IMG/VR virus record: IMGVR_UViG_2687453530_000006
Span: 1-42,965 of that record
Direction: 5' to 3' (one strand)
DNA length: 42,965 bases
DNA from: a virus
Lineage: Duplodnaviria; Heunggongvirae; Uroviricota; Caudoviricetes
Shown here one piece after another: positions 426-34,967 of the stretch (position 1 is the first letter of the stretch; every line of letters begins with the position of its first letter). A model generated the notes under the pieces. It ran no database searches. It had not been told where the DNA came from and was given only the letters and a program-made list of their open reading frames with translations. A program made the position numbers and the translations under genes.

Positions 426-1010
426 TTACATTGTGTCTGGTTCTTCCGGCCACTCAATATCAGGTGCAGTTGATGTATCAACACGGTTCAGCAACACCCG
501 ATACTTCTTCCAGGCTTCCAGCAATGAGGTTTCTTCCTCCGTTGCGATCTCCAGATCCACAGCATCCTGAAGCGGCGCAATATGCTCACTGGCTACCTGC
601 ATCAGGCTGTTTTTTGTTTCTTCCGCCTCACGGATCCGGAACAGTTTTTCTGCTTCCGTATCCTTCACCCAGGCTGTGCCGTTCCACTTCTGAAACTCCC
701 CTTCCGGCGATAACCAGGTAACATTTTCCGGTAACGGACCGAGTTCAGAAATAAATAACTCGTCCCCTGACGCTACGTCATAAACCGTTTTACCCCGATG
801 GTCTTCAACGAGATGCCACGATGCCTCATCACTGTTGAAAACAGCCACAAAGCCAGCAGGAATATCTGGCGGTGCAATATCGGTACTGTTTGCTGGCAGA
901 CCTGTATGAGGCGGAATATATGCGTCACCTTCACCAATAAATTCATTAGTTCCGGCCAGCAGATTATAAATTTTTATGGTCCGTGGTTGTTCACTCATTC
1001 TGAATGCCAT
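426..1010 (-). CDS. tfa: Tail fiber assembly protein
   Basis: 194-aa ORF immediately downstream of stf; sequence and size typical of lambdoid Tfa proteins as recalled. Confidence 0.85.
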
Positions 1011-24364: not shown

Positions 24365-24598
24365 ATGTCAACGAAGAACAGAACCCGCAGAACAACAACC
24401 CGCAACATCCGCTTTCCTAACCAAATGATTGAACAAATTAACATCGCTCTTGATCAAAAAGGGTCCGGGAATTTCTCAGCCTGGGTCATTGAAGCCTGCC
24501 GCCGGAGACTGTGCTCAGAAAAAAGAGTTTCTCCTGAAGCAAACAAAGAAAAGAGTGACATTACTGAATTGCTCAGAAAACAGATCAGACCAGATTGA
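24365..24598 (+). CDS. Small ribbon-helix-helix-like protein (lambda right-end ORF homolog)
   Basis: 77-aa ORF; basic N-terminus and NIRFPNQMIEQINIALDQ...WVIEACRRRL pattern typical of RHH folds; sits next to cos as in lambda. Confidence 0.6.
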   Translation: MSTKNRTRRTTTRNIRFPNQMIEQINIALDQKGSGNFSAWVIEACRRRLCSEKRVSPEANKEKSDITELLRKQIRPD

Positions 24599-24654
24599 AG
24601 CAATTTAGATAATCGTGCAGACTACACCCCTCATATCACATGGAAGGTACTACA

Positions 24655-25065
24655 ATGGCTCAGGTTGCCATTTTTAAACAAATATTCGATAAAGTGCGAA
24701 ATAATTTAAACTATCACTGGTTTTATTCTGAACTAAAACGTCACAATGTCTCACATTACATTTACTATTTAGCCACAGAGAATATTCATCTTGTTCTTGA
24801 AAACGATAATACGGTTTTAATAAAAGGACAGGGTAAGGTTGTAAATGTAAGATTTTCAAAAAATAAATGCCTTATAGAAGCCACCTTAAAAGGATTCAAA
24901 TCAGGAGAGTTATCATTTTACGAATACAGGAAAAATCTTGCTACAGCAGGGGTTTTCAGATGGATTACAAATATCCACGAAAACAAAAGGTATTACTATA
25001 CCTTTGATAATTCATTACTCTTTACTGAGAACATTCAGAACACTACACAAATATTTCCGCACTAA
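24655..25065 (+). CDS. DUF1398-family protein (lambda right-end ORF homolog)
   Basis: Start placed at [14 protein letters not shown], preceded by GGAAGG; resembles the lambda ORF adjacent to cos as recalled; the ORF extends upstream to 24640. Confidence 0.7.
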
Positions 25066-25133: not shown

Positions 25134-25631
25134 TCATTGTTGCCCCCACAAACAGACCTCACGCTCAATCTCACGACGAGTCATCAGGCCTTTCCATTGC
25201 TTACCGCCAGCGTATGCCCAGCGACGTAGCTGGTCACATGCGCCCTTGATATCGCCCTGGTTTATTTTGCGAAGAAGAGTAGATGTTCTGAAATTGCCAG
25301 CACCCACGTTGTAGACGAACGAGTAAAGAGCGCCGCGCGTTGTTTCCGGTATATCGACTTTGATGTACGGGTTAATTTGTCTGGCGACAGTGGCAAGGTC
25401 TTTATTCAAGAGTGCTTTGCATTCTGCTTTGGTATACGTTTTACCGAGCATGATGTCTTTTCCTGTATGCCCGTGACATACAGTCCATACACCAACAATA
25501 TCTTTATATGGTATGTAGCTGACACCTTCCAGACCATCGTTACCACTTGGGCCAGTGATTAACACAGATGCTATAGCAATAGCCCCGCCACCAATAGCAG
25601 CAGCAACAGCTTTTCGTAATGATGGAGGCAT
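25134..25631 (-). CDS. R: SAR endolysin (T4-type lysozyme, GH24) of the phage 21 R type
   Basis: 165-aa ORF; N-terminal weakly hydrophobic Gly/Ala-rich SAR segment ([20 protein letters not shown]) followed by a lysozyme domain; start overlaps the holin stop (TAATG). Confidence 0.85.
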
Positions 25632-25846
25632 TATCCACCTCTCGCAGCCTTGCGCTTATCTTCTTTAATCTTGAAATAAAGGTTTGTCAGGTACGTCAGC
25701 AGGCCAAAGACCAGGCTACCCAGCACACCTATTGCTGCCCACTGTGAGGGCGTGACTTTATCGAGCAGCTGTAAAAACCAGTAACCGGCACTACCTGCTG
25801 AGGTGCCATAGGCGACACCCGTTGTTAACTTATCCATGGATTTCAT
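25631..25846 (-). CDS. S: Pinholin (phage 21 S-type) with dual-start motif
   Basis: Start placed at MKSMDKL (71 aa) with a second Met three codons later; two transmembrane segments; the ORF extends upstream to 25912. Confidence 0.8.
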
Positions 25847-25913
25847 AACCCCACCTCGCAGATGCGGGTGCTGTGTAATGGAAATAAAAAGGCCACCTGA
25901 CGTGGCCACCAAA

Positions 25914-26966
25914 TTATTTCCCCACCAGCTCGTTTATCTCTTTCACTGTCTGGTTAAACCGCTCTGACTCAAGCTCAACACCTAAGGCCCGACGCCCCAG
26001 CGCCATTGCTGCTTTTATTGTGGAACCGGATCCCATAAAAAAATCAGCAACCAGATCACCAGGTCGACTACTGGCATTGATTATTTGCCTGAGCATATCC
26101 GCCGGTTTCTCACACGGATGTTTACCCGGGTAGAACTGAACGGGTTTATGCATCCAGACATCGGTATAAGGCACGGAGACTGATACGGAGAAATAGCGCC
26201 GGAGAGATTTAAACTCATCCAGCAATTCAGAATATTTGCGATTCAGTGAATCATAAGATGCCACCAGCTGGTGGTGTGGTTGTTCCAGTTGTTGTTCCTG
26301 AAACTTCTCTGCCGCTATACGGGAAAACAGTGCCTGTAACTTCCGATAGTCAGCCTCATTCGGCAACTGCCACTGACTGGCACCAAACCAGTGGGAAACC
26401 ATATTTTTCTTACCTGTGGCTTCAGCAATTTGTTTTGCCGTTATACCCAGTTCGGCACGAGCATCCCTGAAATACGATATCAGCGGTGCCATTATGTGCT
26501 GTTTGAGTTCCCTTTCTTTTGCCGCATAGCCGTCACTTTTGCCGCGATATGGCCCCTGGTAATGTTCAGCAAACAGAACGCGCTCTGTGGCAGGAAAATA
26601 TGCGCGCAGACTTTCTTTATTACACCCATTCCAACGTCCGGACGGCTTCGCCCAGATGATATGGTTAAGCACGTTGAAACGTTCACGCATCATGATCTCA
26701 ATATCAGATGCCAGGCGATGCCCACAGAACAGGTAAAGGCTTCCGGCAGGTTTTAACACCCGCCAGAACTGGGCCAGACAGTGGTCCAGCCACTTAAGGT
26801 AATCTTCGTCCCCTTTCCACTGATTGTCCCAGCCGTTGGGTTTCACCTTGAAGTACGGCGGATCGGTAACAATCAGGTCAATGGAATCATCAGGCAGGGA
26901 CTGAATAAAATGCAGGCAATCAGCGTTGATTAAATCAACACTGTTTATTTTTACAGTATTTTTCAT
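25914..26966 (-). CDS. DNA methyltransferase (beta-class N6-adenine or N4-cytosine; DPPY motif)
   Basis: 350-aa ORF with [10 protein letters not shown] (motif IV) near the N-terminus and FFMGSGST (motif I, SAM binding) near the C-terminus. Confidence 0.8.
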
Positions 26967-27116
26967 GGATCAGTAAGCGTAACTCTGGTAGGCTCACTCT
27001 GCTTTTGCGCTAAAGCAGTGGGCCGTGGTTCGCTTGTGACCAGTAGGCATGAGCGAATGGCTGGCAGGTGCTACCAACACCCACCAGCCGCCCATTTTCA
27101 CAGCAGGAAACCGCCA

Positions 27117-27320
27117 TTACTGGCAGCGTCTGAATTTATTCCCGTACCCGCCGTTATCCTTCGCCAGACCCGCCAGAACTAACTGAGTCAGTATTAACTG
27201 GCACCGGGCTTCGCTTACTCCGGTAGTTCTCGTCATCATGCGTGGCGTTACCCACTTGTCAGCAGGTAAGAAATGAAGGACTGCGGCGGCGGTTTCTGTC
27301 ATATCTTGCTGTTTTAGCAT
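27117..27320 (-). CDS. Hypothetical small protein (67 aa from the internal Met)
   Basis: ORF 27117-27404; start placed at MLKQQDMTETAAAVLHF, preceded by AAGGGA; first ORF of the late region upstream of the methyltransferase. Confidence 0.4.
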   Translation of the reverse strand: MLKQQDMTETAAAVLHFLPADKWVTPRMMTRTTGVSEARCQLILTQLVLAGLAKDNGGYGNKFRRCQ

Positions 27321-27445
27321 GTTTTTTCCCTTCTGGTTAACATGACATACCAATAACTCTTGTCTAAAAAGCCAGCAAGATAAAAAGCCAGTATTCACGA
27401 CCACCAGCGTGTTTACTGTACTGCACCAGGTTTACAGGTACAAAA

Positions 27446-27472
27446 AAACCGCTCAGCGGCGGGTTTAAGTTG
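27446..27472 (-). terminator. Possible tR'-like intrinsic terminator at the head of the late operon
   Basis: On the minus strand, short GC stem (ccgc-tga-gcgg) followed by 7 T; the stem is only about 4 bp, so this is weak. Confidence 0.3.
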
Positions 27473-27588
27473 TGTGGCGAAGTAACCACTCTTAACAGAT
27501 TACAATGTTTTTTGCGGACCGCGCTAATGATTTCCTCTTTTTTTTGTTGTATTTTTCACACGGTTGCTAAAATTATTTCGGATCGATA

Positions 27589-28530
27589 ATGAGTACAGAA
27601 AATAAGAATAAAACTAGGCGAGTGAGAGTTGGTTTTTTCACTGGTAATGGAAGCAAAAAAGATGGCACATCTGCTGCAAAACTAGCCTTTGAGCAAATGA
27701 CCACAGCAGATACTGTAACTTTTCCAATAACTTACACAACAGACACCCCAAATCGAGGGTTAAAGTTAGTTATTCTTCAAAAAGATACCACACTGCAATG
27801 TTACTTTGGTTACGTATCGTGGAGAAGGGAATGCCTACTACCGTTCATCGAGGATGCTACAGGTAGTGAGAGAACAATTCCTTTAAATGATAAAGATTCT
27901 GTAGTTGAAAGAACATATTTTATCTATTACTACGAAACGGATTTATTAGCTATGACCCTCAACCATATAGGGCCCAAAGTAAATGATCTGGCATTCATTT
28001 TGTATAACAAAACTGATTTAAAAAGCGTGACTTTTGAAGCCATTTGGAAACAAGAGAGCATGAAGGAACTGCTTGAGGACGGAAATATCCTACGTAGTTT
28101 CGATCTTATAGTTGCTGCTCCAAGAAACTTTAACAAAGCTAATTATAAGATTAAAAACCCTTTAGCTAATGAAATTATTGACATGGTTGTTGGTATGGGC
28201 GGGTCGCATCTAAGATTAAATATGCGAGGTCGGATTCGCCCGAAAAAACAAGGTTTTAACTATCTAAAAACTTCTGTCACCGATGCTATTAAGGAACTAC
28301 TTGAACTTTTTCCAAAAGGTTCTGGAGGTCTAAAAATTAAAAAAATTGATGTAACCGAGCCATCCAATAGAACGCCCAAAAGTCTACTTGACCAAGTATT
28401 GGTCAGTACAAAGACAATCATTGTCAAAAGCGGTTATCCATCCGATTCTGATATCAGAACGGCGATGATATCTGCTAAAATTGATAACGCGAACTATCTT
28501 GCACAGTATGAGCTCGCTAGCAGAGACTAA
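27589..28530 (+). CDS. Hypothetical soluble protein, candidate RexA-like sensor of a two-gene module
   Basis: 313-aa ORF in an AT-rich block, opposite in orientation to surrounding late genes; basic N-terminus; the stretch HIGPKVNDLAFILYNK resembles a lambda RexA segment as recalled (unverified). Confidence 0.45.
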   Translation: MSTENKNKTRRVRVGFFTGNGSKKDGTSAAKLAFEQMTTADTVTFPITYTTDTPNRGLKLVILQKDTTLQCYFGYVSWRRECLLPFIEDATGSERTIPLNDKDSVVERTYFIYYYETDLLAMTLNHIGPKVNDLAFILYNKTDLKSVTFEAIWKQESMKELLEDGNILRSFDLIVAAPRNFNKANYKIKNPLANEIIDMVVGMGGSHLRLNMRGRIRPKKQGFNYLKTSVTDAIKELLELFPKGSGGLKIKKIDVTEPSNRTPKSLLDQVLVSTKTIIVKSGYPSDSDIRTAMISAKIDNANYLAQYELASRD

Positions 28531-28539
28531 TAACCAAGC

Positions 28540-29001
28540 ATGGAGGACACAATGAGAGAATTAGCCACTTTTCTCTGGAAATGCGTCCTCTGGATTCTGT
28601 TGACCTATGCAGCGACAAAACTGTTTAAACCGATGAAGCATGCTGACGTACTCACAACAGCGGGGGTGCTCTCGACTATATCAGGCATCCTGTTTGGTTT
28701 TGTTCTGGCTGCAATATCTATATTTAGTAGTGCAAACAGCGATAAGGAAGGAGCAATTAATGCCCTTAAGCAAAACAACGTGTTACCAACTCTGGTAAAT
28801 CGATTACTTTCAACAGGGTTAACTCTCATCGTCGCATGTATATTTCCATTGATAGCGATGTTTCTACCAGATGATGTTATTGTTGCGGGCAAACCTATTG
28901 ATTTCCTATTCATACTGTTAGGCTTATCCTCCCTTATAATTTCGCTATATACCTTCGGAAGGTGTTGGTTAGTGTTACGAAAAATCTTCCCCCACTTGTG
29001 A
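28540..29001 (+). CDS. Small four-helix membrane protein, candidate RexB-like effector
   Basis: 153-aa ORF 10 bp downstream of the 313-aa gene; four hydrophobic segments of about 20 residues; alternative start at 28552 after GGAGGA. Confidence 0.45.
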   Translation: MEDTMRELATFLWKCVLWILLTYAATKLFKPMKHADVLTTAGVLSTISGILFGFVLAAISIFSSANSDKEGAINALKQNNVLPTLVNRLLSTGLTLIVACIFPLIAMFLPDDVIVAGKPIDFLFILLGLSSLIISLYTFGRCWLVLRKIFPHL

Positions 29002-29030
29002 CAGGTTGGCCTCATATGGGGCCAACCTGT
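29001..29030. repeat. Perfect 11-bp inverted repeat (hairpin) between convergent genes
   Basis: acaggttggcc - 8 nt - ggccaacctgt, lying between the stop of the membrane-protein gene and the stop of Q. Confidence 0.7.
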
Positions 29031-29036
29031 GCAACC

Positions 29037-29405
29037 CTAAGCGTCCATTTCAAGGTTAACATCCAACATTGAAAGGCAACCATCAATAAATCCTTCGGCT
29101 AGTTGTATTTCTATGCGTACCAATTTTTCATCCTTTCCACGCACCTTTGCAATCTTACGCTTGGATATTCTGTATAAATAATGTGCCACAAGCAGCGAGT
29201 GCTCATCTGGCTTTTTTTGCTTTAGACGAGCAAGACAACCTTCAATAATTAATGCATCACTATCTGAACAAGCCTGACGTGTTTTGCTTGTGTAGGGAAG
29301 AAGCCCCTTAAACCCAGCAGCTATAGGCGAATAGTCTACTCCAGAACTATCACTCGCCGCCCATGCTCCCCAACGCTCCAGAACCATCTGAATATCACGC
29401 ATCAA
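29037..29405 (-). CDS. Q: Late-gene antiterminator Q (QuuD/Q82-like family)
   Basis: 122-aa ORF starting MMRDIQMVLERWGAWAA, resembling E. coli prophage QuuD-type antiterminators as recalled. Confidence 0.75.
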   Translation of the reverse strand: MMRDIQMVLERWGAWAASDSSGVDYSPIAAGFKGLLPYTSKTRQACSDSDALIIEGCLARLKQKKPDEHSLLVAHYLYRISKRKIAKVRGKDEKLVRIEIQLAEGFIDGCLSMLDVNLEMDA

Positions 29406-29419
29406 CTTTCTCCACCAAA

Positions 29420-30415
29420 TCAGGCCAACACACCAATCGCCAGCGCGCGATCGATAAAACGAAATATCAGCTCCAGTTGGGAGCCATACTTCTCTTCAAA
29501 TGCCACGGTATCCGCATGCAGCTCGTCGTGATGCTTTCTGCACAAAGGCAACACAAAGAGGTCATGCACTTTTGTATCCATTCCACCCTGACCGTGACCT
29601 ATCAGGTGGTGGGGATCATCAGCAGGCTTTCCACAACATGCACACGGCTGTGTCTTAACCCAGCGCGTGTACTTTTCATTAACCCAGCGGCGGCGTTTTG
29701 GGCGTAACATAAAAGACTCCGGCGACTCCGGATCCACTTTCAGCGCCAGCACCTTTTTCGCCTTATCCTGGATGATGCTGGTGGCAGGAACCGAAGGCAC
29801 AAGGTCACTTTCCCGGGTGACAGACGGCACAACAGGCTTCGGTAATCTCAGTGCCTTACGGGCTGCACTTTCCGGTAAGGCATCTGCCAGATCATTACGA
29901 ATCAGCCACCAGCACAGTTCCGGCATTGTCACAACGTGACTATCATCAAAACCGAGATCCCGACGCACAACAGACAACACCCAGCGGGCACAGTTATCCG
30001 TTGCCATTGATTCCAGCCGTTCCGTGAACTGATCGCGAAGCTGGTTATCGCAGTGCCAGCACAGACGGATTGCGCCCGGCGCGTGTCGCATTGTGGTCAT
30101 GTTCTCGCTGTGCCAGTCGGAATGAGGCCACTGGCAGCCTTTTTCACGAAGTAACCAGCTTTCAAGACATTCCACCCCACCAGCACGACGAATCACTGCC
30201 TCATTACGGAACACGGCCAGAACGGCAGGATCATCCGCCAGCGGTTGTGATGCCGCAGGAACGGCACCACTGGCGAAAGATGAATAACGCTCCGGCTCAG
30301 GCTCCAGCAGAACACGCCCCTGCATAAACAGGGGCATCAGCTCTGAACCTGGCCTGAACAATACGATCCCCATACGCGGGGCTATTTCAGGGGTCAGTAG
30401 TGCTCTCACGGTCAC
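29420..30415 (-). CDS. DUF968-family protein (YdfU-like) with C-terminal Cys/His HNH-like motif
   Basis: 331-aa ORF; C-terminal CACCGKPADDPHHLIGHG...CRKHHDELH; adjacent to Q as ydfU is to quuQ in the Qin prophage as recalled. Confidence 0.6.
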   Translation of the reverse strand: MTVRALLTPEIAPRMGIVLFRPGSELMPLFMQGRVLLEPEPERYSSFASGAVPAASQPLADDPAVLAVFRNEAVIRRAGGVECLESWLLREKGCQWPHSDWHSENMTTMRHAPGAIRLCWHCDNQLRDQFTERLESMATDNCARWVLSVVRRDLGFDDSHVVTMPELCWWLIRNDLADALPESAARKALRLPKPVVPSVTRESDLVPSVPATSIIQDKAKKVLALKVDPESPESFMLRPKRRRWVNEKYTRWVKTQPCACCGKPADDPHHLIGHGQGGMDTKVHDLFVLPLCRKHHDELHADTVAFEEKYGSQLELIFRFIDRALAIGVLA

Positions 30416-31623: not shown

Positions 31624-31946
31624 ACTTTCAGGCCTCTCTCATGTAACCAGTGGGCTGCACGCAGCCTGGCGTTTTCCTCACCGGCAAGCAGTGCGCGGAT
31701 AATCCCGACCGCCTCGCTGTCGTCGTCCTTCACCGCGGTATGAAGCGTTATCCCCCGGGCCACGCCACGCTTTATCGTGATGACGCCTTTTTTCTCCAGT
31801 GCACGAAGATGCTCTACCGCTGCATTCACTGAACGGTATCCCAGCATGGTTGCCACCTCCTGATTGGTTGGCGGGAAGCCACGTTCTTTCTGATAAGAAA
31901 TCAGCATATCCAGCACCTGCTGCTGGCATTGAGTTAACGTCGTCAT
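31620..31946 (-). CDS. LexA N-terminal DNA-binding-domain-only protein
   Basis: 108-aa ORF; LTQCQQQVLDMLISYQKERGFPPTNQEVATMLGYRSVNAAVEHLRALEKKGVI closely parallels the LexA winged-HTH domain as recalled; no S24 peptidase domain. Confidence 0.75.
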   Translation of the reverse strand: MTTLTQCQQQVLDMLISYQKERGFPPTNQEVATMLGYRSVNAAVEHLRALEKKGVITIKRGVARGITLHTAVKDDDSEAVGIIRALLAGEENARLRAAHWLHERGLKV

Positions 31947-32596
31947 GCCGCCATCTCCCTGACCAGTTTTTCTGCCTGCTGGCGAACCTGCGCCAGAAAG
32001 GCCTCACCACATGCCTCAAGTTCATCGCGCCCGATGTAGCTGATTGCCGGTCCCTTCCAGGTCTTGTCGAAAACAGCAATAGCACCAGCGAAGAACGCAC
32101 CTGTCGGCACCTGCTTCTCATCCTTCGGGATAAACCAGGCAGGCAGTTCAAAACCAATACGCCCGCGAATAAAAGCAATATGATCTGCATCTTCCGGCCA
32201 CCACACTTCGCTGGTGGCAGCTTTGATCAGGAAAACATAGCGCCCGCCTTTATCACGCATGGCACTGGCATGCTTCATGATGTAACGCATGCCGGTGATG
32301 TATTGCCCCTCATGCTGACTGGCGCGGCTGTATGGGGGATTACCAAAGGCAGCACCTTTAAGCTCCGCAAGACGTTCTGACCAGTCATGCGCCAGCGCGT
32401 TGTCTTCCGCCGTGTAATACGCGGCACATTTGGCGTTATCACCGTCAGTGAACAGATCCAGAACAAACGGACCAAACAGGGTGTTAATTCCCCAGAAAAT
32501 GTTATCCGGCGTGCGCCACTGATCGCCCACTTCCTTCAGTTCATGGGCTGGTTTATTCCGCAGTTCCACCAGCGCCTGGCAATATTTATTACTCAT
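31943..32596 (-). CDS. Phage Dam-type N6-adenine DNA methyltransferase (NPPY motif)
   Basis: ORF 31943-32629; FGNPPYS motif; start placed at MSNKYCQ, where the ATG overlaps the upstream stop (TAATG); alternative start at 32629. Confidence 0.75.
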   Translation of the reverse strand: MSNKYCQALVELRNKPAHELKEVGDQWRTPDNIFWGINTLFGPFVLDLFTDGDNAKCAAYYTAEDNALAHDWSERLAELKGAAFGNPPYSRASQHEGQYITGMRYIMKHASAMRDKGGRYVFLIKAATSEVWWPEDADHIAFIRGRIGFELPAWFIPKDEKQVPTGAFFAGAIAVFDKTWKGPAISYIGRDELEACGEAFLAQVRQQAEKLVREMAA

Positions 32597-33090
32597 TAAG
32601 CCCCCACGTAATTCCCTGACAGATACCACTCTTCACCCGATGCAGCGCGCTTGCTGCTTTTCCGTAAACACTGCTCACGACGCGCCAGAAAATTGTTTCG
32701 TTCTGGCTGGGAGTGGCTTTCACGGAATGCCGCCATCCACACCGTTGCAGCACGACGGTATAAGCCCCTGGACTCCAGTTCTTCCGCCTGGCGGGTCAGG
32801 CACAAAATCACCCGCGGGTCGTTAGTGCCGACATAGAAATTGCGCACAGGTCTGGTTTCACGAACTGGTTGTGGTTCCGGCTCCTGCGCTCTCTCAGTCA
32901 GGCGTGGGAAATGTCTGCGTGTATCTCCTTCACAACGGTGAGCCACACGCCCACTCTGACGTAACTTGCTTGCTGACTGCAGAACGCGCTGCCGTGAGTA
33001 ACCTGCAAAAGCATCCGCAATGTCTCCGGAAGTACACCCCGGATGGGCTTCAATGAATTTCTGAACTTCATTCAAAAGACTCATGATCAC
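32596..33090 (-). CDS. Hypothetical protein (possibly PerC-like regulator)
   Basis: 164-aa ORF translationally coupled between the replication gene and Dam; contains a YRRAATVWM motif; family assignment uncertain. Confidence 0.4.
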   Translation of the reverse strand: MIMSLLNEVQKFIEAHPGCTSGDIADAFAGYSRQRVLQSASKLRQSGRVAHRCEGDTRRHFPRLTERAQEPEPQPVRETRPVRNFYVGTNDPRVILCLTRQAEELESRGLYRRAATVWMAAFRESHSQPERNNFLARREQCLRKSSKRAASGEEWYLSGNYVGA

Positions 33091-34138: not shown

Positions 34139-34967
34139 GACGATGCCCTCCGCTGATATTCAGGAGACGGTGAATATGAAAATTAGCCTTATCCGCCAGA
34201 CGAATACGTTCAGCCTGCAAGTTAAGAAGGGTTTCTACCAAAACCTGATGCGCCTGCGGATCCGAAAGAGTTACCTTGCGCAGAGCACGTAGTGCAGTTG
34301 TTACATAACTGAGTTTATGTAAGTCTTCATCATTCAGACGAGTGAGGGCTGGGACAGTAGCCATGATGGCAGCCTCCGATAACAGTGAATTACCTTCACC
34401 ACCGGAAACGCCAATTTCGCTGGTGGTGAACTGAACGGGGTTGGCGTAACCGGCGTTATCGGAAACCGGCGCACCTTTCGGTGCCCCCGTCCAGCCCACC
34501 ATAATTTGGGTGTGCACAGACGCAGACGATAAAAAAGACGCTGGCGCGTCATATATCGCCGATAACATTTCCAGGACGCCAATCCCGGCACCCGCTTTAT
34601 AAGGTGCCTGAACAGTGTAACGTCCCGGAATGGCAGAATCAATGTGCTGGTGGTCCTTCACACTCAACAAAATCACGCCTGAATTTCCACAAAGGACTAA
34701 AGCACTCATGCGGGTAGTCTTTGCGAAGATAGATAACGCGCTGTGTTTCTGGCTCCCAACGAATAACATGAACATAAAGTCCTCTTCCGTCACGAAACCA
34801 GCGGTTAAGTTCCTGCACAACTCGCCCCCCACAGTCAGGTAAAGTTCTCTGTGGTTACTTACAGCCAGGTGATTTGGTAATCTGCATTCATGCCGTAACA
34901 ACAGGTGTTCAGCGACGCTGACCACCAGCTGTTGCGACAAACGGTTATTTGCCGTTAAACTGTTCAT
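34131..34967 (-). CDS. Hypothetical protein (early right operon)
   Basis: 278-aa ORF between the cII-like gene and the replication gene; no recognisable motif. Confidence 0.45.
   Translation of the reverse strand: MNSLTANNRLSQQLVVSVAEHLLLRHECRLPNHLAVSNHRELYLTVGGELCRNLTAGFVTEEDFMFMLFVGSQKHSALSIFAKTTRMSALVLCGNSGVILLSVKDHQHIDSAIPGRYTVQAPYKAGAGIGVLEMLSAIYDAPASFLSSASVHTQIMVGWTGAPKGAPVSDNAGYANPVQFTTSEIGVSGGEGNSLLSEAAIMATVPALTRLNDEDLHKLSYVTTALRALRKVTLSDPQAHQVLVETLLNLQAERIRLADKANFHIHRLLNISGGHRHA

Follow-up and report, generated by a model that had tools for sequence, protein, structure and literature searches.

An M.EcoGII-family adenine methyltransferase gene on the late-gene strand of an Escherichia coli lambdoid prophage, and the conserved structured RNA leader that precedes it

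The methyltransferases M.EcoGI and M.EcoGII from prophages of Escherichia coli O104:H4 C227-11 (Murray et al. 2018, PMC5778455), together with M.EcoMV from the ST131 strain EC958, are orphan enzymes borne by lambdoid prophages. M.EcoGII modifies adenine whatever the surrounding DNA sequence, accepts RNA and DNA:RNA hybrids as substrates as well, and shows a sequence preference neither on DNA nor on RNA (PMC5778455, PMC11551740). It is unexpressed in the lysogen and damages cells on expression; M.EcoGI is likewise silent in the lysogen and harmful when expressed (PMC5778455, PMC12707154). For M.EcoMV, which is 99% identical to M.EcoGI, no transcript was found in EC958 by reverse transcription PCR (PMC4659465), and homologues in O111 Shiga toxin-producing E. 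coli left no mark on the lysogen methylome (PMC6602927). In the com-mom system of phage Mu, a small protein binds the leader of the messenger and permits translation of a toxic late enzyme (PMC6483171, PMC3299994). Here, we describe a member of the M.EcoGII family in the virus record IMGVR_UViG_2687453530_000006 of IMG/VR (positions 1 to 42,965; the whole stretch of 42,965 nucleotides (nt) is called the window below). The window consists of a lambdoid prophage of E. coli whose late genes lie on the minus strand. The methyltransferase gene is preceded by a structured RNA leader and by a small winged-helix gene. Taken as a whole, the locus is probably best explained as encoding a late, Q-dependent, non-specific protective methyltransferase, insulated by terminators and by the leader. 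Prophage location of the gene is seen directly in the window, whereas silence in the lysogen is known from the published M.EcoGI, M.EcoGII and M.EcoMV.

From its sequence, the protein is an intact beta-class DNA adenine-N6 methyltransferase of the M.EcoGII family. A Pfam profile search matched residues 29-341 to PF01555 (N6_N4_Mtase) with 145.9 bits (cut-off 26.7, E=2.2e-42), well outside what chance could produce. The single DPPY (motif IV, residues 35-38) stands before FMGSG (motif I, FxGxG, residues 310-314). The order motif IV, target-recognition domain (TRD), motif I is the circular order of the beta class, with about 170 residues separating the two core halves. All structural relatives belong to this class, namely RsrI (1eg2), MboIIA (1g60), CcrM (6pbd), DpnA (5hek) and 8urk/9c3u. 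These solved enzymes have the Rossmann catalytic core and the motifs in common with the protein, but the likeness is limited to the core halves (residues 9-115 and 280-347), and no solved relative of the central domain was detectable by sequence. These results bear out the original prediction, made from the letters of the window, of a 350-residue beta-class methyltransferase. The open reading frame (ORF) is full length, and all catalytic motifs are kept. The protein is RefSeq WP_000799656.1, identical or nearly so in phages mEp460, cdtI and Ayreon, and its top PADLOC model is MTase_II (PDLC03265, 3e-152).

M.EcoGI, M.EcoGII and M.EcoMV share with this protein the beta class, a length of 349-350 residues and about 80% identity. 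The alignment with M.EcoGII is collinear over the full length, at 81% identity by BLASTP and with 281/350 identical residues; the M.EcoGII sequence used was a machine-read copy from Table S1 of PMC11551740 that contains a few obvious reading errors. A comparison of clean sequences gave the same figure, 81%, with the methyltransferase of phage 1720a-02, which has been called very similar to M.EcoGII (PMC5778455). By region, identity to M.EcoGII is 119/134 in the N-terminal core, 60/78 in the TRD (residues 160-237) and 68/91 in the C-terminal core. The two proteins differ at about 70 of the 350 aligned positions, and 18 of these fall within the 78 residues of the TRD. Identity reaches 310/350 (89%) with the reconstructed ancestor Anc291 and 246/350 (70%) with SUPREM. 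In a published AlphaFold2 model, a long charged linker connects the M.EcoGII core to the TRD, which is a four-helix bundle containing a helix-turn-helix (PMC11551740); given the sequence identity, the same architecture is expected here. M.EcoGIX was also considered as a relative and was ruled out, being plasmid-borne and single-strand specific.

Family membership bears on what the enzyme would modify. Anc291 and SUPREM both methylate DNA, and on RNA they show no discernible motif (PMC11551740). A site-specific orphan enzyme that recognises a defined motif and protects against one particular restriction system is quite improbable. It might be argued for from the TRD, which is only 77% identical to that of M.EcoGII, from the predominance of site-specific enzymes in PF01555, and from the RefSeq name, sometimes given as 'site-specific DNA-methyltransferase'. 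That name is however a generic family label, M.EcoGII has no DNA sequence preference, and the two ancestors bracket the protein (PMC5778455, PMC11551740). Moreover, a partner endonuclease was found in none of the relatives examined. A discrete target motif for the present enzyme thus appears unlikely. Because the family, which the original prediction did not recognise, is characterised and sequence-non-specific, the experiment suggested with the original prediction, a search for the target motif, would probably yield no motif. The methyltransferase as such is not a new finding, its family being already characterised biochemically.

The interval from 25914 to 27320 had been given for the methyltransferase. 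It is not one gene: the 1407 nt comprise the methyltransferase gene, a non-coding spacer and a separate 67-residue gene (Table 1). The spacer folds at -62.5 kcal/mol (z=-3.07). Of 9 relatives, 8 have a spacer of precisely 150 nt, also at coding identities of only 74-80%, and the spacer is more conserved than the methyltransferase gene itself. A micro-ORF within it (MGGWWVLVAP..., 32 codons here) was ruled out by a TAG at codon 8 in most relatives and by 1-nt insertions or deletions.

A search with an 18-mer of the spacer found copies in Citrobacter, Enterobacter, Kosakonia, Kluyvera, Buttiauxella, Providencia, Morganella and further genera. Almost every copy has TGATCYATG, the start of the methyltransferase gene, at its end; UGAUCY is conserved before the AUG. 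In a plain MAFFT alignment of 49 copies, 84.7% of the alignment cells pair, as compared to 32-48% when the partners are slid, and compensatory changes are present in helices 3 and 5. From this alignment we built a covariance model, which matched once and over its full length in 44 of 45 diverse viral loci, phage N15 included, and each of the 44 matches ends at or within about 20 nt of a methyltransferase start. In the window, the sole match runs from 26961 to 27121 on the minus strand. When 63 distinct sequences were aligned under the guidance of the model, both sides changed in 30 of 39 pairs, and 322 double-change cells were counted, shuffles giving 116 ± 10 and slid controls no more than 84; an alignment guided in this way leans towards the structure of the model, and the MAFFT result with the slid controls gives the safer figures. 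Helix P1 (UGGGC/GCCCA) is invariant, and the P2 helix of 10-12 base pairs (bp) has been rebuilt with an entirely different sequence in several lineages. Many pairs are G-U, which fits an RNA read from the methyltransferase strand. Conservation of the leader, accompanied by extensive covariation, reaches from lambdoid phages of E. coli to prophages of Morganella and Providencia and to N15-like phages. It matches no family of Rfam 15: searches with gathering and with E-value thresholds were both empty over 25500-29500. On these comparisons, it is probably a real cis-regulatory element.

The leader core ends 5 nt before the methyltransferase ATG, so that the start codon lies 5-6 nt past the last hairpin. 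No Shine-Dalgarno (SD) sequence precedes this start, and its pairing with the anti-SD sequence, at -2.4 kcal/mol, is the weakest among the neighbouring genes (-5 to -8 kcal/mol for the others). A structured leader next to a start without SD sequence suggests that translation of a toxic enzyme is throttled post-transcriptionally.

The third part of the interval encodes a 67-residue protein (RefSeq WP_000917724.1, phrog_331) and is the first gene after the terminator of a conserved upstream cassette. Homologous proteins are short too, and neither the MLKQQDMTE with which they start nor their RCQLILTQL helix varies; some of them are named TrmB-family regulators by NCBI. AlphaFold2 modelled the protein with a pLDDT (predicted local distance difference test) of 87.8 as three helices and a beta wing, a confident winged helix. 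Using this model, Foldseek returned generic winged-helix domains only, with template modelling (TM) scores up to 0.84. Among these hits, the Z-DNA-binding Zalpha domain (TM 0.84) was considered and ruled out as a specific assignment, as winged helices of TrmB, IclR and SelB score similarly and the Zalpha contact residues, Asn/Tyr in helix 3 and Pro-Pro-x-Trp in the wing, are not visible. PADLOC gave no match for the protein. Of 80 divergent loci, 55 encode a homologue on the methyltransferase strand no more than 600 nt ahead of that gene, and N15 gp51 is a distant homologue. Across relatives, this small ORF and the spacer are the only constant partners of the methyltransferase. The protein is a candidate regulator of the methyltransferase module, or a candidate partner of it that binds RNA or DNA.

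In working terms, the nearest parallel is offered by Mu com-mom and by the com-like gene and the non-specific alpha-class methyltransferases Hin1523 and Hia5 of Mu-like prophages (PMC6483171, PMC3299994). These systems also comprise a toxic, broadly acting adenine-modifying enzyme that is made only late, a small gene ahead of it and an mRNA structure at the enzyme start, and the role proposed for them is broad anti-restriction. The parts differ, however. Com is a zinc-finger protein and not a winged helix, the enzyme is Mom or an alpha-class methyltransferase and not of the beta class, and the RNA fold is another one. The resemblance would lie in a possible mode of action and not in family membership, and binding of the leader by the winged-helix protein is a hypothesis drawn from the analogy. 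Still more tentatively than for the locus as a whole, we propose that the winged-helix gene, the 123-nt leader and the start without SD sequence may jointly act as a gate that controls a toxic, promiscuous methyltransferase post-transcriptionally, a proposal to which we give slightly less than even credence. Such a gate could work through remodelling of the leader by the small protein, as in com-mom, through ligand sensing or as an RNA-processing element. We found no earlier description of a leader RNA with a linked winged-helix gene, or of such a gate.

Table 1. Positions of the methyltransferase module, its neighbours and further features in the window
Feature	Position	Strand	Details
Methyltransferase gene	25914..26966	-	ATG start; 350 residues
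Non-coding, highly structured spacer	26967..27116	-	150 nt
RNA leader core	26972..27094	-	P1 enclosing P2 and P3, then hairpins P4 and P5; 123 nt
Winged-helix gene	27117..27320	-	67 residues; annotated separately in RefSeq, SfV (orf47), cdtI (orf55) and Ayreon
Conserved non-coding cassette	27442..27543	-	about 100 bp; ends in an intrinsic terminator (hairpin 27460-27448 and U-run)
Antiterminator Q gene	29037..29405	-	122 residues; Phage_antitermQ PF06530, E=7.7e-52; RefSeq 'antiterminator Q family protein'
Intrinsic terminator, methyltransferase stop to holin start	25881..25907	-	GGCCAC-GUCAG-GUGGCC (25907-25891), then UUUUUAUUU
P21-type holin gene, dual start (M-K-S-M)	25631..25846	-	PF04971, E=3.6e-35; RefSeq essD; ATGs at 25846 and 25837
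Perfect 11-bp inverted repeat	29001..29030		ACAGGTTGGCC ... GGCCAACCTGT; -21.5 kcal/mol
RexA/RexB-like gene pair	27589..29001	opposite to the late genes	
Orphan Dam-type methyltransferase gene	31943..32629	-	TIGR01712, E=1.7e-76
C4 antisense RNA	34419..34506	-	Rfam match; 82.8 bits
isrK Hfq-binding small RNA	34531..34607	-	Rfam match; 63.7 bits
Rfam family IS009 match	469..667	-	224 bits
Two ORFs of low G+C content (0.39)	24365..25065	+	77 and 141 residues; opposite to the late genes

The original prediction had also placed the methyltransferase early in the late operon and on the late-gene strand; the strand is as stated, and synteny supports the place in the operon. Read in the direction of the minus strand, a DUF968 gene comes first, then Q, an opposite-strand cargo, the cassette, the module and the genes for P21-type holin, phage lysozyme, small terminase (Nu1-like) and large terminase (lambda-A-like); the methyltransferase is encoded on the same strand as Q, holin, lysozyme and terminase genes, and it lies downstream of Q and of the conserved terminator-bearing cassette. 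The Q protein, which governs the late operon, matches the solved Q of phage 21 weakly (E=0.002). The further claim, that the methyltransferase sits directly upstream of the holin, needs a qualification. The next gene on the same strand is indeed the holin, the first lysis gene after the module and followed by the lysozyme, but a strong intrinsic terminator occupies the 67-nt gap. This second terminator folds at -21.8 kcal/mol (z=-3.77), with none of 200 shuffles as good, and it is annotated in SfV, Ayreon and N15. Other phages have tRNA genes and stx2 between methyltransferase and holin. As predicted, the enzyme appears to be an orphan: Pfam, PADLOC, PHROGs and NCBIfam gave no restriction-enzyme match among the neighbours, that is, the winged-helix gene, the holin, the lysozyme and the RexAB-like pair.

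The cassette between Q and the module consists of a near-invariant core, TGTTAAGAGTGGTTACTTCGCCACACAACTTAAACCCGCCG, followed by the hairpin. Its terminator was found by a scan here and is annotated in SfV and Ayreon, and in N15 a promoter and a terminator are annotated at the corresponding site before the methyltransferase. In phage 1720a-02, the cassette stands directly 3′ of the stop codon of a related Q, and the small ORF, the methyltransferase and stx2 come next. In mEp332 and in a prophage of strain JNE070796, it comes after opposite-strand cargo (nmpC and a TIR protein, respectively) and just before the holin. The Q region of JNE070796 is 82% identical to that of the window and the cargo is different; homology stops inside Q and resumes only at 27558-27444. 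The textbook late layout is a Q gene, promoter, pause element, terminator and late genes (bioRxiv 10.1101/651190). Because the synteny among relatives fits this layout, we infer that the cassette combines late promoter, pause element and tR′. In this arrangement, the cargo pair would have been inserted between Q and the late promoter unit, and the small ORF and the methyltransferase would be the first two late genes.

A late promoter immediately 3′ of Q was ruled out, as homology with JNE070796 resumes at the cassette and the 35-bp gap behind Q, between the convergent Q gene and a gene of 153 residues, holds only an 11-bp inverted repeat. This repeat is perfect and has a U-run on neither side. 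It is probably a bidirectional terminator or a cargo-insertion junction. The cargo itself is a RexA/RexB-like gene pair that is missing in most relatives. No link of this pair to RexA/RexB was found at the sequence level, PADLOC gave no match for it, and a literature search on DUF6731 found no paper.

The gene is widespread. By megablast, the methyltransferase gene is present in 1264 of 5426 complete E. coli genomes, in 621 of them at an identity of at least 99%. Among phages, it is found in vB_EcoS-569R4, cdtI (orf56), Ayreon, mEp460, SfV (orf48) and many Stx2c phages. The 80 best-matching IMG/VR contigs are 98-100% identical to the gene and add no diversity. More distant members are the enzyme of a Morganella phage (62-64% identity) and N15 gene 52 (55-58%), and down to 55-60% identity the length, the leader and the position are kept. 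Common to the annotated orthologues of SfV, cdtI, mEp460, Ayreon, vB_EcoS-569R4, Stx2c phages, 1720a-02 and N15 are the small upstream ORF, the 150-nt spacer and the flanking terminators, with the gene lying between the Q cassette and holin, stx or tRNA genes. They differ in the type of Q and in the cargo between Q and cassette. N15 has the layout promoter, terminator, leader, methyltransferase, terminator, holin, and its winged-helix gene lies upstream of the promoter and terminator and not downstream as here.

Such conservation also bears on the idea of a decaying or silent passenger gene without current function, which we consider very improbable. The absence of methylation from such genes in lysogen methylomes would fit it (PMC6602927, PMC4659465), but silence in the lysogen is what is expected of a late gene. 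In addition, the ORF is full length with all catalytic motifs present, the 80 best-matching viral contigs conserve it at 98-100%, and proteins at 55-60% identity still keep length, leader and position.

In phage 1720a-02 and in the Stx2a phage Stx2_14040, the small ORF, the leader and the methyltransferase are located between Q and tRNA genes plus stx2AB. The Stx2_14040 methyltransferase is 93% identical to the machine-read copy of M.EcoGII. From this gene order, a methyltransferase close to M.EcoGII would be co-transcribed with Shiga toxin from the late promoter in these phages.

It is unlikely, if a little less so than site specificity, that the main role of the enzyme lies in the phage's own biology, for instance in tagging DNA for packaging or replication (compare P1 Dmt at pac) or in altering the transcription or RNA of host or phage at a late stage of infection. 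Activity of M.EcoGII on RNA and hybrids (PMC5778455, PMC11551740), the existence of phage methyltransferases with packaging roles (PMC12707154), the very wide spread of the gene and its location upstream of stx2 in some Stx phages all speak for such a role. Many lambdoid phages with the same late and packaging modules nevertheless do without the gene, the cassette leading straight to the holin in mEp332 and in the JNE070796 prophage; the gene is thus accessory and not required for packaging. Moreover, DNA modified by the non-specific enzymes of Mu-like prophages withstood many restriction enzymes (PMC3299994).

Late protective methylation by an insulated enzyme would proceed as follows. In the lysogen, the short RNA from the late promoter would stop at the cassette terminator and no transcript would reach the methyltransferase. 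Upon induction, Q-modified RNA polymerase would pass this terminator and transcribe the winged-helix gene, the leader and the methyltransferase, then pass the second terminator to reach the holin, endolysin and packaging genes. The enzyme would methylate adenines of replicating phage DNA with little or no sequence preference, so that packaged genomes would reach a new host in a methylated state that shields them from the many restriction enzymes of types I, II and III blocked by N6-methyladenine (m6A). Since the enzyme would be harmful to a growing cell, its gene is placed between two terminators, and its SD-less start codon just 3′ of the conserved fold would probably limit or gate translation. 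The original prediction as a whole is supported: its structural claims hold, and late-only expression and an anti-restriction role are both proposed in the literature for the close relatives M.EcoGI and M.EcoGII (PMC5778455, PMC12707154); by analogy, they may hold here.

Several points weigh against this explanation. Methyltransferase activity and expression of the present orthologue are presumed from its relatives. The 18 TRD positions that differ from M.EcoGII make some sequence preference possible. A sigma-70 consensus scan found fewer promoter-like sites than in shuffles and none in the cassette, and no convincing -35 and -10 hexamers or pause element could be assigned there. We found no literature on hypermethylated virion DNA of such phages. 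Global m6A would sensitise the DNA to m6A-dependent restriction by Mrr and DpnI-like enzymes, so that the net benefit would depend on the host. Finally, the prophage has a second methyltransferase, of the Dam type, in its early region.

This second gene lies in the nin region and is an orphan that matches the model 'phage N-6-adenine-methyltransferase'; the phage thus carries one early and one late adenine methyltransferase. The early region also gave adjoining matches to C4 antisense RNA and to the Hfq-binding small RNA isrK, both at Rfam gathering score. The Rfam family IS009 match is located near the tail-fibre end. Between the lysis and terminase genes, the two opposite-strand ORFs of low G+C content form a second moron slot; they may resemble the DLP12 ylcI/ybcV region.

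Overall, the methyltransferase adds a further copy to a characterised family that is already used as a tool, and well over a thousand E. coli genomes, along with many sequenced phages, carry it in their annotation. What the anatomy of the locus explains is how a lethal, non-specific enzyme can be carried safely: its gene is held between two terminators, directly behind a putative Q-controlled promoter, and has a poorly translatable, structured start. The leader RNA and the linked winged-helix gene could constitute a simple model for post-transcriptional control of toxic phage genes, and they would also matter for the expression of M.EcoGII-type enzymes. As some Stx2 phages carry the module between Q and stx2, any control that it exerts on late transcripts would act upstream of toxin expression.

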